Position numbers and translations under genes: made by a program. From the NCBI GenBank assembly GCA_963817915.1, contig CAWFQL010000016.1, forward strand, positions 352,001 to 416,000: 64,000 bases of DNA, in the 5' to 3' direction. Origin of the DNA: an uncultured candidate division Zixibacteria bacterium. Its GTDB lineage: Bacteria > Zixibacteria > MSB-5A5 > UBA10806. Below are positions 43,386-64,000 of the stretch, piece by piece (positions within the stretch are counted from its first letter, which is position 1; each line of letters starts with the position of its first letter). The notes below the pieces were generated by a model. That model was not told the origin of the DNA and ran no database searches. It saw only the letters and a list, made by a program, of their open reading frames with translations.

Positions 43386-44012
43386 ATGAAAAAACGTGAT
43401 AGAAATGCTGGCTTCCTTTGGGTGCTTCTGGGCTCGATAATTTTTTTGTCGCCATTAGCCAATGCTACAAATCATCATATCAGCATTACGGGCCTTCAAT
43501 TCGTGCCGCACGGGATATCCGTCAATATCGGTGATACGGTTACCTGGACGAACAATGACGCAGTCTTGCATACGTCGACAAGCGATCAGGGCGTTTGGAA
43601 TTCAGGCACCTTGGCACAGGGAGCTTCATTTTCATTCCGGTTCGACAATTCTGGACGATTTCCATACCATTGCGCCGTGCATCTTTTTATGAAAGATACA
43701 ATCAATGTCGCATTGACTGGAATCAATGATAATTCAAGCAATATCCCGACACAATTTGAACTAAGCCAGAACTATCCCAACCCCTTCAACGCTGAAACCA
43801 ATATCGATTTTACTCTCAACGCCGAAGGACACGCGTTACTTGAAATTTATAATGTGCTTGGGCAGATAGTAGATGTCCTCGTGGATCAGACGATGAGCCC
43901 GGGAACATACAAATATAATTGGAACGCCGGAAACAGAACATCGGGTGTTTTCTTTTATCGGCTGACATTCGAAGGCCAAACCAAAACTGGCCGAATGACA
44001 CTGCTGAAATAA
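43386..44012 (+). CDS. Secreted cupredoxin (amicyanin/plastocyanin-like) with T9SS-type CTD
   Basis: GDTVTWTN..H and YHCAVHLFM give His/Cys/His/Met type-1 Cu ligands; NYPNPFN CTD. Confidence 0.88.
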   Translation: MKKRDRNAGFLWVLLGSIIFLSPLANATNHHISITGLQFVPHGISVNIGDTVTWTNNDAVLHTSTSDQGVWNSGTLAQGASFSFRFDNSGRFPYHCAVHLFMKDTINVALTGINDNSSNIPTQFELSQNYPNPFNAETNIDFTLNAEGHALLEIYNVLGQIVDVLVDQTMSPGTYKYNWNAGNRTSGVFFYRLTFEGQTKTGRMTLLK

Positions 44013-56533: not shown

Positions 56534-56581
56534 CTATCCTCCAGTCGACTTGATATCGAAATTACTGTTCCTATTTCCTTT

Positions 56582-57410
56582 GTAGGTCGCGGTTTGAGTC
56601 CGCCCCGGACGAAAACCCGACATCTTTCCTAAATTACCTTTTGTCGGGTTTTTCAAACCCGACCTACTGCTCCCTATTGCAGTGTTCGTAGTTCTTATTT
56701 CTTTTGTAGCTCAGTGTCTGATCCGCCGAAGGCGGAGAAGACCCGACAATTTGTTATTCCCCAAAATCACCACTAAATTTTACTTCACTTACAACTCCCC
56801 AATTTCGCTCATATTTCCCATCTTCATAATACTTCATTAAAGAAGAATACCTATATTCAAATGGATCCTTTGACATTCCATGTCCGACAGGATTAAAATG
56901 AATATAATCAATATGATTATTCATATCGTTTTGATCGCGAATAATATGGTCCCAAAATCGATTTTGCCAAACCTTGCCAGGGCGATATTGGCGGCGGAAT
57001 TCCAATGAATATTTTGTCTTAAACGAATGTATAATTTGGGAAATAGAGATGTCGTCTATTTTTATTATCAGATGAAAATGATCCGGCATAATGACCCAAG
57101 CCTCTAACGTGCTACCGGCCCAACTGCTCCAGAAAAGGTCGATATTTAAATGCAGGATGGCTTCTCTTTTAAACGTGACATTGGTTATAAAATAATAAGT
57201 ATTTCTAATGTCGAATCTTCGTAGCGTCTTCATGCTTAACCTTTTGTCGGGTTTTTCAAACCCGACCTACGACTCCCTAAAATCTGATTGCCTGTCTGAT
57301 TTCCTGTGTAGGTCGCGGTTTGAGTCCGGCGCCTGCCGGACGAAAACCCGACAATTCTTTTATTATTCTTCTTTATTCACTTGTTGTCGGGTTTTTCAAA
57401 CCCGACCTAC
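56582..57410. repeat. Six REP elements (consensus GTAGGTCGGGTTTGAAAAACCCGAC) in inverted pairs flanking a RAYT
   Basis: Copies at 56582, 56641, 56706, 57244, 57308 and 57384. Confidence 0.9.
56754..57233 (-). mobile_element. REP-associated tyrosine transposase (RAYT/YafM-like)
   Basis: YFITNVT, MPDHFH, WQNRFWDHIIRD, YIHFNPV.HG and YSS motifs; flanking REPs. Confidence 0.93.
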
Positions 57411-58277: not shown

Positions 58278-58664
58278 CTATTTAGGTTGATCGTGTTTTG
58301 GGAATGCTAAATTCGGGCCTGACGATGAATCCTTCATCTTGGAGCTGCCATGAAACATGGCGCCATGCTCGACCAATAATGACTTGGATGTGATATCACC
58401 AATTAATTCCGACTTCGCCTGCAATTCGACTTTTTCGGATGCGATGATATTTCCCTCGACCTTGCCGCCGATGATGATAGCCTTAGCCCTGATTTCGGCC
58501 TTGACCACTCCCGTGGCTCCGACCGTAACGACATCATTGGAGATTAGCTTTCCAGTGACAAAGCCATCAATGCGGGTAGCGCCCTCGATGTCGATCGATC
58601 CTTCGACCTTTGTACCTTTTCCGATTATGGTTTCCAGACGACCCTCACTTTTTGTACCGTTCAT
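58278..58664 (-). CDS. Bactofilin (polymer-forming cytoskeletal protein)
   Basis: TIIGKGTKVEG...RIDG...VEGNI.A..KVEL...GDI....L.VEHGA.F.G. Confidence 0.92.
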   Translation of the reverse strand: MNGTKSEGRLETIIGKGTKVEGSIDIEGATRIDGFVTGKLISNDVVTVGATGVVKAEIRAKAIIIGGKVEGNIIASEKVELQAKSELIGDITSKSLLVEHGAMFHGSSKMKDSSSGPNLAFPKHDQPK

Positions 58665-58714
58665 ATCTCCCTCTTTTTTAATTTCATTTTTTTCGAATCT
58701 TTTCAGCATCATAT

Positions 58715-59533
58715 TTAATCCAGATATGACGCCGGGTTTACCGGTTGGCCATCCTTTCTAATCTCGTAGTGCAAATGAGGCGCAGAGGAGTTGCCGGTAT
58801 TCCCCGAAAGCGCAATGACATCTCCTTTTAACACCTTTTGCCCCTTTTCCACAAGCATTTTTTTATTATGGCCATATAATGTTTGAAAACCATTGCCGTG
58901 GTCTATGATTACTAAATTCCCCAATTCTTTATCCCATCCGGCGTATGATACTGTTCCCGAAGCCGTCGCCAGTACCGATGTACCCTCTTTAACCGCGAAA
59001 TCAATTCCACTATGTTTCTCAAAAACTGTGTCTTTATCAGATGTAAATGGTCTCGTAATCCATCCATATAGTGGTCTGCCATGTGGAATGACTATCTTAG
59101 CGAGCGTATCCGACAAAGGCTTTGAAGAAGCAATCATGGAATTATCAACAGAGTCAGTTCCGGTATCATTATAGTTTGTATCGGGTATATCAGTCTCGGA
59201 TGATCCATACGATTCCGAGAGCGCCATCTGTGAAATATCAACCCCTGCCATCTCAGCCAGGCGGACCGTCAGGTCACGGTTCTTCTTATAGTTCTTTTCG
59301 ATTTCATTTACTCTGGATACATCAGCGCGCAGCTTTTGATTTTCATTTTCCAATGACGACACGCGGCTGGCCTTGACCGCAAGCCCCGCGTATACTATCG
59401 TGATACCAATTAGAGTCAAAATCAAAAGAGCCGAAAGCGAAATGACGACTTTGAACATCGTCAGGGACATGCTCTGTGAAAATATTCGTTCGCCCCCTTC
59501 GGGGACAATCATGAATGTTATCTTCTTGCTCAC
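58715..59533 (-). CDS. M23 peptidase with TM helix and coiled coil
   Basis: HSGID, YGH and HLHYE motifs. Confidence 0.92.
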   Translation of the reverse strand: MSKKITFMIVPEGGERIFSQSMSLTMFKVVISLSALLILTLIGITIVYAGLAVKASRVSSLENENQKLRADVSRVNEIEKNYKKNRDLTVRLAEMAGVDISQMALSESYGSSETDIPDTNYNDTGTDSVDNSMIASSKPLSDTLAKIVIPHGRPLYGWITRPFTSDKDTVFEKHSGIDFAVKEGTSVLATASGTVSYAGWDKELGNLVIIDHGNGFQTLYGHNKKMLVEKGQKVLKGDVIALSGNTGNSSAPHLHYEIRKDGQPVNPASYLD

Positions 59534-60411
59534 TGAGTTTCAATCGCCCCAAATAAATCTAATATTCTATTAAGATCGTCATTGGTGTAATATTCGAAAA
59601 TAATTTTGCCACCCTTTTTCTTCTGATTAATTGACACCTTTGTTCCAAATTTTCTTTTCAATACTTCCTCGACCGAAACTACCTGAGCAGAACGGGATTC
59701 TGCCAATTTTAATTTTCTCGCGGGTTTATTATTATATACGAGCTTTTCGAGCTCGCGAACATTGAGCCCCTCGGCTATCGCTTTTTCAGCCAAGGCGATT
59801 TTTTCTGTATCGGTCTGCAGTGCTAATAGTGTTCGCGCTTGGCCCGCCGAAAGACGACCGTCGTTCACCATTCCCTGTATTACTTCCGGTAATGACAGCA
59901 AACGAAGGGAATTGGCTACAGAGGATCTATCTTTGCCTACTCGTCCGGCGACATCGGCCTGGGTTAGATTGCATTCGGTCATCAGACGACGATATGCCGT
60001 TGCTTCTTCGATCGCATTGAGATTCTCGCGTTGAATATTTTCGATAAGGGCCAATTCCATCGATTCCTCATTGCTGGTGGAATCATAGACTACCGCCGGT
60101 ATAGAGGGCATACCCAATTTCTCGACAGCCTTGAGTCTTCGTTCGCCGACAATCAGTTCGTATCCATTCTCTGTAGCGCGAACTACGACGGGCTGAATCA
60201 CGCCACGTTCTCTTATTGATTCGGCCAGCTCCGCCAATTTTGCCTGATCGAAAACCTGGCGCGGCTGAAATGGATTAGGCTTAATTTCAGATATCGGGAT
60301 TTCGAATATAACACCATGCCTTGAATGTGAGGAGGTATCCTCTTCTGCGCCCGATGCGCCGGCTCCCGGAATCAGGGCCTCAAGTCCTCTACCTAATACC
60401 ATTCGCTTCAT
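59530..60411 (-). CDS. parB: Chromosome partitioning protein ParB
   Basis: LGRGLEAL, PNPFQPR, GERR and ENIQRENL motifs. Confidence 0.97.
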   Translation of the reverse strand: MKRMVLGRGLEALIPGAGASGAEEDTSSHSRHGVIFEIPISEIKPNPFQPRQVFDQAKLAELAESIRERGVIQPVVVRATENGYELIVGERRLKAVEKLGMPSIPAVVYDSTSNEESMELALIENIQRENLNAIEEATAYRRLMTECNLTQADVAGRVGKDRSSVANSLRLLSLPEVIQGMVNDGRLSAGQARTLLALQTDTEKIALAEKAIAEGLNVRELEKLVYNNKPARKLKLAESRSAQVVSVEEVLKRKFGTKVSINQKKKGGKIIFEYYTNDDLNRILDLFGAIETQ

Positions 60412-61166
60412 CTGGACAAAACCTCCTTGGCGAGATTAATATAGTTTGCCGCTCCCGTGGACAAAATATCATATAACAATATCGGCTTGCCGAAACTTGG
60501 CGCTTCCGAAAGCCGGACATTACGATTTATAACAGTCTCGAAAACTTTTTCAGGGAAAAACTTGCGGGTCTCATCCGCGACCTGCTTGGAAAGATTCAAA
60601 CGGCCGTCATACATGGTGAGCAAGACACCGTGGATATCCAATTTCGGATTCAGATGCTTTTGAACTAATCGCACCGTATTCAGAAGTTGCCCTAGCCCTT
60701 CAAGGGCGTAATATTCGCACTGAATGGGAATAATGAGGGAATCGGAGGCTACAAGCGTATTAATTGTCAGAAGTCCCAGCGATGGCGGGCAATCAATCAG
60801 GATAAAGTCGTATTTGTCTCGGATTGACGCCAAAGCATCCTGCAGCCTGTGCTCTCTTGAGGCCACAGACACTAGCTCAAGTTCGGCTCCAACTAAGCTG
60901 ATATTTGCCGGCAGAATATCGAGGAATTTGATCTCTGTGGACACAATCGCTTGTACGGCAGGGACTTGCCCCAACAAAACATCGTAGGTCGATATTTCCA
61001 CGAGCTTCTTATCGATACCTACACCCGATGTCGTATTGCCCTGAGGATCCATATCGATCAGTAGAGTCTTCTTTTCGGCTACAGCCAGACAACAGGCCAG
61101 ATTGATTGCGGTCGTGGTTTTGCCGACACCGCCCTTTTGATTCGTGATTCCAATTATTTTCGACAT
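60408..61166 (-). CDS. parA: Chromosome partitioning ATPase ParA/Soj
   Basis: KGGVGKTT, DPQGN, DCPP and RLSEAPS motifs. Confidence 0.97.
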   Translation of the reverse strand: MSKIIGITNQKGGVGKTTTAINLACCLAVAEKKTLLIDMDPQGNTTSGVGIDKKLVEISTYDVLLGQVPAVQAIVSTEIKFLDILPANISLVGAELELVSVASREHRLQDALASIRDKYDFILIDCPPSLGLLTINTLVASDSLIIPIQCEYYALEGLGQLLNTVRLVQKHLNPKLDIHGVLLTMYDGRLNLSKQVADETRKFFPEKVFETVINRNVRLSEAPSFGKPILLYDILSTGAANYINLAKEVLSR

Positions 61167-61251: not shown

Positions 61252-61267
61252 AGTTTCACGTGAAACG
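61252..61267. promoter_or_regulatory. parS site
   Basis: AGTTTCACGTGAAACG, upstream of parA. Confidence 0.9.
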
Positions 61268-61283
61268 AGATAATATGGAATCT

Positions 61284-61898
61284 GTAGGTCCGAACCCCCA
61301 TGGTTCGGACTCCTGTCTTTTATTCTCCAATATTTCGGCGAAACCACGGGGGTTCCGCCCTACCCAAAGCAATTTATCTCGGAGCTATGATCTTGTAATA
61401 CCCGACTCGCTCAAAATAGATGACTTTGCCATCGGGCTTGACGATTTCCTTGATACGATCGAGATGTTTCTCCCAGCGAGGGAGGAAATTGTAGGTCCGA
61501 ACCCCTGCGGTTCGGACTCCTGCTTTTCATTTTCCAATATATAGGCGGAACCACGGGGGTTCCGCCCTACCCAAAGCAATTTATCTCGGAGCTATGATCT
61601 TGTAATACCCGACTCGCTCAAAATAGATGACTTTGCCATCGGGCTTGACGATTTCCTTGATACGATCGAGATGTTTTTCCCAACGAGGGAGGAAATTGTA
61701 GGTCCGAACCCCTGCGGTTCGGACTCCTGCTTTTCATTTTCCAATATATAGGCGGAACCACGGGGGTTCCGCCCTACCCAAAGCAATTTATCTCGGAGCT
61801 ATGATCTTGTAATACCCGACTCGTTCAAAATATATGATTTTGCCATCGGGCTTGACGATTTCTTTGATACTATCGAGATGCTTCTCCCAGCGGGGCAG
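61284..61898. repeat. Three 207-bp tandem units: REP doublet + last 111 nt of rsmG
   Basis: REP starts at 61284, 61491 and 61698; rsmG-end blocks start at 61374, 61581 and 61788 (exact 207 nt period). Confidence 0.95.
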
Positions 61899-62339
61899 GG
61901 CGCGCACCAGGGCAACATCGAATTCAACTGTTGGCTGGTATGATTCGAGCCTGATTTCGGCGATTTCGATATTATTAATATCTAATTCGCTATGAAGCTT
62001 CTTTAAAAACAATACTTTTTTATGGACAGATTCAACAAGCGTGAATCTTGCATTGGGACGACTGAGGGCAAGCGGGATTGCCGGGAAGCCGGAGCCGGAA
62101 CCGATATCGACAACCTTACAAATATCGGGAATCTCGTTCAGTGGCGCCAGGGAATCAAAAAGATGTCGGGTGATCATCAGGCTGAGATCGTTTTGAGAAA
62201 CCAGGTTCATCCGGCTCGACCAGGACCTAATCAGATCAAAATGTATCTCGACTTTCTGAACAAAGCCGTCATTGATCCCAAATGACCGGGCCCGAAGCCA
62301 CGTGACTATTCTCTCTTTTTCGGCCTGACTTAACGGCAT
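61788..62339 (-). CDS. rsmG: 16S rRNA m7G527 methyltransferase
   Basis: NLVS...RHLFDSL, DIGSGSGFPAIPLA, LVES..KK and RA motifs; synteny mnmG-rsmG-parA-parB. Confidence 0.95.
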   Translation of the reverse strand: MPLSQAEKERIVTWLRARSFGINDGFVQKVEIHFDLIRSWSSRMNLVSQNDLSLMITRHLFDSLAPLNEIPDICKVVDIGSGSGFPAIPLALSRPNARFTLVESVHKKVLFLKKLHSELDINNIEIAEIRLESYQPTVEFDVALVRALPRWEKHLDSIKEIVKPDGKIIYFERVGYYKIIAPR

Positions 62340-62359: not shown

Positions 62360-62375
62360 TGTTTCACGTGAAACA
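62360..62375. promoter_or_regulatory. parS site (perfect palindrome)
   Basis: TGTTTCACGTGAAACA. Confidence 0.95.
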
Positions 62376-62451: not shown

Positions 62452-64000
62452 TCATATTTTCCGCCGAAGATGAACCATCAGGACCGCAATGTCGCCGGGG
62501 GATATCCCCGATATTCGGGATGCCTGACCGAGGGTTTCCGGACGAAATTTAGCCAATTTCTCAACCGCTTCGGTTTTGAGGCCGGTTAACTTTTTATAAT
62601 CCAAACTGGTAGGCATCGAATAGCCATCCAACTTCGCCTGACGATCAACTAGCTCCTGCTGACGTTTGACATATCCGCCATAATAGATTTCGTTGGCCAG
62701 CTGACTAAATAGCCTTTCGCCATGCTTGGCCATTAAATTAGATAATATCGGATAGCTATTGATATCGATATGCGGCATTTTCAACGCATCGTAAACCGAG
62801 ACGTTCTTCATCGTCGTATTGCCGTTATCCCGAGTCTCGATTTCGAGTCGCGTTTTCATCATTTCATTGAGCATTTCAGATTTTACAACACTGATTTTGA
62901 GTATGTCTATCGAAAATATTCTGTTTTACCAGCCCGAGACGATAACCTTTTTCCAAAAGCCGCTCTTCGACATTATCCTCCCGCAGATTCAGGCGATATT
63001 CCGCCCGCGATGTAAACATGCGGTACGGTTCCGATGTCGATTTCGTGACCAGATCATCTATCAATACTCCGATATAGGCTTCTGATCGGCTTAATTTGAA
63101 CGGTTCCTCGCCGCGGATCTTCAAGACAGCATTGATTCCGGCCATAAGCCCTTGCGCCGCTGCCTCTTCGTAGCCCGATGTGCCATTAACCTGCCCCGCG
63201 AAATAGAGATTGGCGACGATCTTGGATTCCATCGTAACATATATCTGATGAGGCGGGAAGAAATCATATTCAATAGCGTAGCCGGGGCGGGTCATCTCGA
63301 TATTCTCCAGGCCGGGGATAGTGCGCAATGCCTGCAGTTGAATCTCCTTCGGCAACGATGACGAAAAGCCGTTGAGATAATATTCGGTGGTATTTTTGCC
63401 CTCGGGCTCCAAAAAGAGCTGATGACGGGGCCGTTCGCTGAAACGAACCACCTTATCCTCTATAGAGGGGCAGTAGCGAGGGCCGATCCCCTTGATGACA
63501 CCCGAATAGAGCGGCGAATACTTGAGATTGTCGCTGATTATCCGATGCGTTACGTCATTGGTATAGGTGAGATAGCAGAATACCTGATCGATCCGGCGCG
63601 AATGGTCGCTGCGATTCGAAAAGTATGGCGCAGGCTCATCGCCGGGCTGGGGATCACATTTGGCGAAATCGATAGTGCGGCCATCGAGACGGGCGGGGTG
63701 CCGGTCTTGAGCCGTCCGGTGGTGATGCCGAACGACTGAGATACTCTGGGATAGCCCGACCGCTGGCGGCTCATCGATACGCCCTGCCGGGAAATGCTCT
63801 AAGCCGATATGTATCAAACCATTAAGGAAGGTGCCAGAGGTGATAACGACAGCCCCGGCGGTGATATTATCGCCATCAGACAGCCTAACCCCTTGACAGA
63901 CATTGCCTTGCGTGATCAGCCCGACAACCTCGCCCTCGATAACCGTAAGCTGTTCTTGGGCTTGCACGGTTTCGGCCATGACCTGCGAATAGAGGGCTCT
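62452..64000 (-). CDS. mnmG: tRNA uridine-5-carboxymethylaminomethyl modification enzyme MnmG (GidA), 5' part outside window, with apparent frameshifts
   Basis: GTFLNG, RLKTGTP (alternate frame), GPRYCPSIEDK, GQVNGTSGYEEAAAQG, PYRMFTSRAEYRL and GQASRISG motifs. Confidence 0.95.

Follow-up and report, generated by a model that had tools for sequence, protein, structure and literature searches.

A tandem array of REP doublets and allele-like rsmG gene ends at the rsmG–parA junction of a Zixibacteria genome

Downstream of rsmG in this genome lie two silent copies of the end of that gene, each attached to a doublet of inverted REP hairpins. The array is probably a REPIN cluster carrying the rsmG end of a sister strain, which entered by homologous recombination, and the joint at the REP end is likely to have been made by a RAYT. 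The joint lies about 5 nt past the REP tag. The variants of the gene end sort into two haplotypes with a bias towards synonymous changes, gene ends joined in this way recur at other loci, and the genome encodes a RAYT that matches the repeats. Repeat clusters of this kind are known, and we describe the array as one that bears the scar of two alleles and not as a demonstrated allele archive.

The array and its repeat family

The window is the whole 64,000-nt stretch that was analysed (G000:C16:352001-416000, where G000 is the source assembly), and bare positions refer to it. The tandem array spans 61283-61899 with a period of 207, 3.0 copies, 94% matches and 0% indels according to TRF, which agrees with the preliminary description of two extra rsmG ends at an exact 207 nt period. 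In the direction of the gene the order is G (the working end), S3, B, S2, A, S1, a parS-like palindrome and parA. The features are as follows.

60408..61166, minus strand: parA (PF13614), the downstream neighbour of the array, left intact by it
61253..61266, no strand: palindrome just beyond the array, which we take to be parS-like, kept before parA in most relatives
61283..61373, no strand: outermost REP doublet S1, hairpins 61284-61310 (+) and 61337-61363 (-)
61342..61409, no strand: 68-nt run invariant across all three units, the last 12 codons plus the doublet start
61374..61484, minus strand: rsmG end, silent copy A, which departs from G at 8 positions (6 synonymous ones, S157R and I168V)
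61485..61489, minus strand: novel joint, from the outer end of the inverted REP through about 5 nt to the Leu148 codon
61490..61580, no strand: REP doublet S2, hairpins 61491-61517 (+) and 61544-61570 (-)
61581..61691, minus strand: silent copy B of the rsmG end, differing from G at 10 positions and from A at 2
61697..61787, no strand: REP doublet S3, identical to S2, mutually inverted hairpins 61698-61724 (+) and 61751-61777 (-)
61788-61898, minus strand: working rsmG end G, the last 111 nt, L148 to stop
61788..62339, minus strand: rsmG (gidB), intact, 183 aa (PF02527, E 9e-39; TIGR00138 above cut-off)

Copies A and B are dead copies of the last 36 rsmG codons, startless scars for which no function is evident. 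Upstream of each, the spacer holds an in-frame TGA, and there is no ATG, GTG or TTG from the TGA to the copy, so they are not separate genes, as the preliminary description had already stated. The joint before copy A recurs identically at 61692-61696 before copy B. Between the rsmG end copies there are 96 nt of REP doublet alone, with no integrase-bearing element. The six GTAG-tagged hairpins of S1-S3 have stems of 9-10 bp and folding z of -4.5 to -5.0, and the REPs of each doublet are inverted and set 53 nt apart, start to start. The doublet had been called the same at each copy; this is right for S2 and S3, but S1 differs from them at 10/91 positions, one of which disrupts a stem, although its linker is homologous. 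S2 agrees with the family consensus from elsewhere in G000.

The surroundings of the array offer some further observations. A second palindrome that is presumably parS-like lies at 62361-62374, and together with the one at 61253-61266 it brackets rsmG and the array. Downstream of parB (58278-60411) are two genes that we take to encode an M23-type peptidase and a bactofilin-like protein. On the other side, mnmG (gidA; 62452-64000) is split near 62876-62890 and runs out of frame at about 63693-63743. These indels are probably assembly errors, because a relative's contigs (run X2) lack them.

The repeats show what defines GTAG-REPs and REPINs: a tag plus palindrome, an inverted pair, many extragenic copies and a matching RAYT. 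The family has 53 copies in G000 (at most 2 mismatches), 16 counted as doublets. It occurs in 55/285 genomes of the phylum, G000 included, and in 0/13 genomes of the same family. Two RAYT genes bear on the array.

G000:C17:582892-583401: RAYT flanked by the array's REP family (NF047646, E 1.3e-38)
56754..57233, minus strand: RAYT inside the window (NF047646 above cut-off)

The second is probably not the cognate enzyme, being flanked by a different REP family. It is intact and bracketed by doublets of this second GTAG-REP family (56580-57410; 9 copies at most 2 mismatches away). For the preliminary proposal that a RAYT mobilised REP plus gene end, the candidate is the family-flanked gene on C17 and not the one in the window.

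Substitution bias and the two haplotypes

Block alignment of G, A and B gives 10 variable positions and no indels. Eight are synonymous third-position changes and the other two are S157/R and I168/V, while the two differences between A and B, at codons 3 and 5, are both synonymous; all of this was correctly noted at the outset. Over 111 nt the pairwise differences are 2 for A-B, 8 for A-G and 10 for B-G. The differences at codons 1 and 2 fall at the very edge of the junction, where the sequence may belong to the flank and not to the allele, so a cautious count is 6 synonymous out of 8. Point mutation would be expected to give a synonymous share of 0.21-0.29. With every change neutral, the observed bias has P = 1e-4 to 0.009. 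With constraint on the working gene alone, P = 0.002 to 0.043, or 0.01-0.04 once the edge codons are removed. The locus was chosen for its synonymous bias, and taken by itself that bias is suggestive and not decisive. The silent copies have neither indels nor stops. To judge by their sequence, A and B are allele-like and resemble working alleles.

Relatives give partial matches to these alleles. An RsmG that is 95% identical (P0001, from a cluster of 2 members, protein only) has R157 as in A and B and I168 as in G. In run X2, a 367-nt contig (depth 3.1) carries parA and just one rsmG end, separated by 139 nt of other sequence. Of its 14 differences from G, 7 are listed. Each of these is synonymous, and the one at codon 22 has the A/B state. 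Three other variable sites are not among the listed differences and were read as having the G state. On this polarity, which rests on the one X2 contig at depth 3.1, the silent copies can be assigned 4 synonymous changes and the conservative I168V (P ~0.02, by hand, with fraction 0.27). As for matching alleles in relatives, the R157 of P0001 and the codon-22 base of the X2 contig go with the silent copies, and I168 of P0001 goes with G. No same-species or same-genus rsmG allele was found, the closest genomes being of the same family, and a metagenome scan for a conspecific rsmG returned 2 loci, at 49% and 33% identity.

A source of sister-strain divergence is present in the assembly itself. 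Stretches of 2.5-8.8 kb in C1, C7, C13, C14, C20 and C21 duplicate other contigs at 94-98% identity, and two duplicated strain contigs match the end of C16. These are haplotypes of co-assembled strains, which lie three deep over the C16 end. Strain contigs C16 and C20 differ by 119 synonymous to 20 non-synonymous changes. At least 6 differences occur in 17/138 windows of 111 nt from five contig pairs, some of these windows coming from the error-rich C21. The G-A divergence of 6-8/111 falls within this range and so fits an allele of a sister strain.

The repeating unit can be read in two ways. Taken as a gene end plus the following REP, A+S1 and B+S2 have 2 coding and 10 REP differences, whereas B+S2 and G+S3 have 10 coding and 0 REP differences. 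With the REP put first and the copy after it, the two inserted units have 2/207 differences. Divergence of the outer parts is 7-11%, and it is biased towards synonymous changes. The near identity of the inserted units and the discordance of the end-first units imply two haplotypes plus one duplication, and the variants phase in this way and not as three successive ends. The preliminary claim that each copy was once a working end therefore stands in that the copies are allele-like, in their bias and in the R157 shared with P0001, but the three alleles reduce to two haplotypes.

Two phasings can be drawn from this. In the first, which is slightly favoured because B's two synonymous changes lie near the joint, G and S1 would be resident and the A/B unit would have come in via a crossover in the 68-nt identical run. 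In the second, about as likely, A and S1 would be resident and G incoming. The 68-nt run (61342-61409) is the likeliest crossover site. After a crossover there, the working end would still be the resident one and the silent copies would be those that immigrated, so the replacement of the C-terminus by a new allele, as originally proposed, belongs to one phasing only.

Gene-end copies at other loci

A scan of G000 for orphan copies of gene ends gave 41 rows, from which 17 joints were picked by hand, with rsmG counted twice. Paralogue pairs and repeat-only rows were dropped from the genome scans. Ten of the 17 joints lie at most 5 nt from a hairpin repeat; among 25,463 non-coding positions sampled as background, 1.1% do. 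Pooling four fragments that come from other genes and are joined to repeats gives 24 synonymous to 5 non-synonymous changes (P 6e-10 if neutral, 3e-6 if half-constrained). The pooled signal comes from two of the four, the 5' end of an aromatic amino acid lyase (13:0) and the 3' end of LigT (10:3). The short fragments, an MFS 3' end (1:1) and a fumarase-type 5' end (0:1), show no bias, and some of the repeats belong to other families. Fragments on C21, at C9:349770, on C11 and on C17 were left out of the pool, these being identical, mostly non-coding, of doubtful ORF or of a paralogue family. The lyase copy (234 nt) and the LigT copy (84 nt) lie in one region, L173 (G000:C3:21200-27823), where both joints are at hairpin repeats and the inserts that the copies bracket consist of two genes and of a broken RAYT-like gene.

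The same was sought in 10 other genomes. Among 150 overlapping loci, out of 197 matches listed there, the share of REP loci with a gene-end copy was 1/150. Five rows were obtained, and four of them (L119, L121) were discarded as ORFs running through repeats. At L079 (G231), a 63-nt gene-end copy has its joint 3-4 nt beyond the same REP tag, with 7 synonymous to 2 non-synonymous changes (P 0.002). A synonymous bias at other REP-adjacent duplicated gene ends, to which the preliminary description had looked, is thus found in G000 (24:5) and again in G231 (7:2). With this recurrence, the second of the grounds on which the preliminary description would have given up its own reading does not apply.

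One locus of this kind has no repeat. The last 29 codons of a nucleoside-transporter (nupC-like) gene are copied 1.9 kb downstream (L177; G000:C3:41911-41997 and 43829-43915) with 10 synonymous and 0 non-synonymous changes. On the side of the joint, the nearest 200 nt contain no hairpin repeat, so scars of this sort do not require a REP.

Other repeat-linked tandem structures were seen along the way. In G000 these are a doublet plus a promoter-like flank, three times over (C8:10338-10730); a 318-nt unit, four times over, in a repeat-linked tandem array (C11:71268-72536); a repeat-linked 123-nt unit, also four times over (C3:73335-73830); and a whole 234-aa gene plus doublet, twice over, with divergence growing away from the repeat (C7:49202-50942). 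Three tandem 322-nt units lie at C16:333683-334702, each with a tRNA-like remnant and a small ORF that, from its motif, we take to be GIY-YIG-like. In G004, of the same family, the parA end and parB start are repeated with a 161-nt period around heptamer repeats (L005:2236-2736). This is a different type of repeat, at the junction neighbouring that of rsmG.

Origin of the array and comparison with known systems

The TnpA-REP papers drawn on here are Ton-Hoang 2012 (PMC3333891) and Corneloup 2021 (PMC8266576). How REPINs move in living cells is given as a still open question (PMC8266576, PMC3337134). In vitro, TnpA-REP cuts single strands at a CT that is 5' or 3' of the REP, also distantly, and transfers strands, and it has been proposed to excise circles and to sequester gene fragments (PMC3333891, PMC8266576). 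Circular REP DNA was not seen in an E. coli mobilome, obtained by a method unsuited to single-stranded circles (bioRxiv 2024.07.17.603846). A CT dinucleotide is present at the rsmG and L079 joints and absent at the MFS joint; CT is common by chance. A lead concerning the Ssn nuclease was dropped, the text of PMC11893778 having no CGTC or RAYT passage.

In the origin that we favour, a REP doublet would already have been present downstream of rsmG in both strains. Single strands would have been cut past the REP end and at Leu148 and then rejoined. The product would be the 207-nt unit, a gene end together with its doublet, which could have been circular in the donor or have formed the non-homologous end of the DNA that came in. 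For the rsmG joint we infer that a RAYT acted. The unit would then recombine into the recipient via the rsmG end, the gene staying whole and one allele being left startless. One duplication of the unit, or its arrival as a dimer, would complete the array. ComEC (PF03772) and DprA (PF02481) are above cut-off in G000, but since both are also in 10/14 control genomes they are weak support for DNA uptake.

The same parts can be put together more generally, in a scheme of gene-end homing that we offer tentatively, as something that could well be wrong. REPINs would spread between strains by using a captured core-gene end as the homology anchor. What a RAYT excises would be a single-stranded circle that starts within the adjacent core gene and extends up to the REP end. 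Carrying cargo or not, this circle would enter the same locus of a sister strain, needing no integrase and leaving the gene unbroken. The rsmG array would then be the cargo-free minimum, and its joint would mark RAYT cut sites in vivo. In this sense the array may be a footprint of how hairpin repeats move between strains. Allele-like ends joined to REP ends point to exact candidate cut sites, and inter-strain transfer by ordinary recombination is predicted from them. If that is true, it would also explain how core loci as tightly packed as rsmG-parAB can take up repeats and small cargo undamaged.

Four other explanations were weighed against a sister-strain end that entered by recombination. 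The array could be an assembly chimera, with the flanks (G and S1) from one strain and the middle from a recent REPIN amplification in another. This would yield the observed phasing of G-S1 against the insert, in an assembly that holds strain contigs duplicated at 94-98% identity. The mnmG indels next door are missing from the relative's contigs and, with the duplicated contigs, are as expected for a long-read consensus of mixed strains. Neither of 2 listed runs contains array-spanning sequence (word shares 0.08 and 0.05; both contigs). However, the same signature appears at loci with kilobase inserts in this assembly and in an unrelated, differently fragmented one, so an artefact is not the general cause and a chimera is an unlikely, minority explanation. 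A and B also differ from each other at two synonymous sites, and the array would tend to be lost from the consensus if the majority strain did not have it. Were the array a chimera after all, it would caution against taking the long-read consensus of mixed strains at face value. The preliminary description had instead seen an allele-swapping element, each round of which swaps the rsmG C-terminus and archives the old end, so that A, B and G are successive. The encoded end is indeed intact in all three copies, the A-B differences are solely synonymous, the joints are at REP ends and a matching RAYT is encoded. But successive swaps require the discordant units (2 coding/10 REP; 10/0), and copies made within one chromosome start out identical, so the divergence would need another strain anyway. 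The swap would alter just S/R and I/V, at positions that vary among RsmG homologues; the effect on RsmG function is probably nil, and an adaptive allele switch is not evident. No duplicated rsmG end occurs in 19 relatives' loci with a full rsmG match (of 21 loci, L002-L022, leaving out L019, which is cut, and L022, a weak partial match). The allele-like copy at L177 lacks a repeat at its joint. Such an element is an unlikely explanation.

Nor does the bias sit easily with an old local capture, in which the genome's own rsmG end was copied by REPIN amplification, after which the gene evolved under selection while the copy drifted and was recently duplicated, the excess of synonymous changes being a chance result singled out among many arrays. 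REPIN clusters with repeated flanks have been described (PMC3116915) and are present here (the C8 promoter triple and C11), P is no lower than 0.01-0.04 without the edge codons, and R157 and the codon-22 base of the copies appear ancestral. The MFS and fumarase-type fragments each have one non-synonymous change. Against these stand the changes assigned to the silent copies (4 synonymous to 1 conservative, P ~0.02, from one contig at depth 3.1), the pooled 24:5 elsewhere (P 3e-6) and the freedom of the copies from indels and stops, and we think such a capture improbable. Translation of the copies or selection on their protein (as a small ORF, by read-through or as a frameshift product) would account for the open frame and stop codon that both retain. 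Yet each copy has the in-frame TGA upstream and no start codon, the 36 residues are a fragment of a methyltransferase domain, and a promoter scan of the copies gave one promoter-like match, at chance level. This explanation is very improbable.

A sister-strain rsmG end brought in by recombination can be set beside several known processes. Homology-facilitated illegitimate recombination, in natural transformation, uses one homologous anchor and one non-homologous joint, the latter at microhomologies. It would likewise leave a displaced allele, and it fits the repeat-less L177 copy too; the joints of the array, in contrast, are at the tagged end of a repeat family. The integration of the prophage e14 uses an integrase. 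In E. coli icd/icdC, e14 displaces a C-terminal fragment with mostly synonymous differences, and recombination swaps the end (PMC13626634). The duplicated gene 3' end and the mostly synonymous differences are shared with the array, but e14 is a 15-kb prophage with site-specific integration (PMC13626634), whereas a 96-nt REP doublet lies between the copies here. The GTAG-tagged hairpins are shared with the REPtron, that is TnpA-REP with its REPs and BIMEs, for which the available portions of the papers describe neither inter-strain transfer nor homology-driven re-entry (PMC3333891, PMC8266576). Supplementary Fig. S7 of PMC3333891 concerns captured fragments and may bear on novelty. A literature search found nothing on allele-like gene ends joined at REP ends, a weak negative from partly noisy results that covered few subscription journals.

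A further likeness is to P. fluorescens SBW25, where tandem REPIN clusters including their flanks are the commonest higher-order arrangement (Bertels and Rainey 2011, PMC3116915) and for which no mechanism is put forward in the available part of PMC3337134. Both have a head-to-tail arrangement of REP doublet plus flank, and a RAYT beside the REP family (PMC3116915). The SBW25 units are described as nearly identical (PMC3116915), whereas here the flank is the coding end of a gene with allele-like divergence, a feature absent from the available portions of that paper. REPIN-plus-flank arrays are known, and what is apparently new is the allelic signature of the captured gene end.
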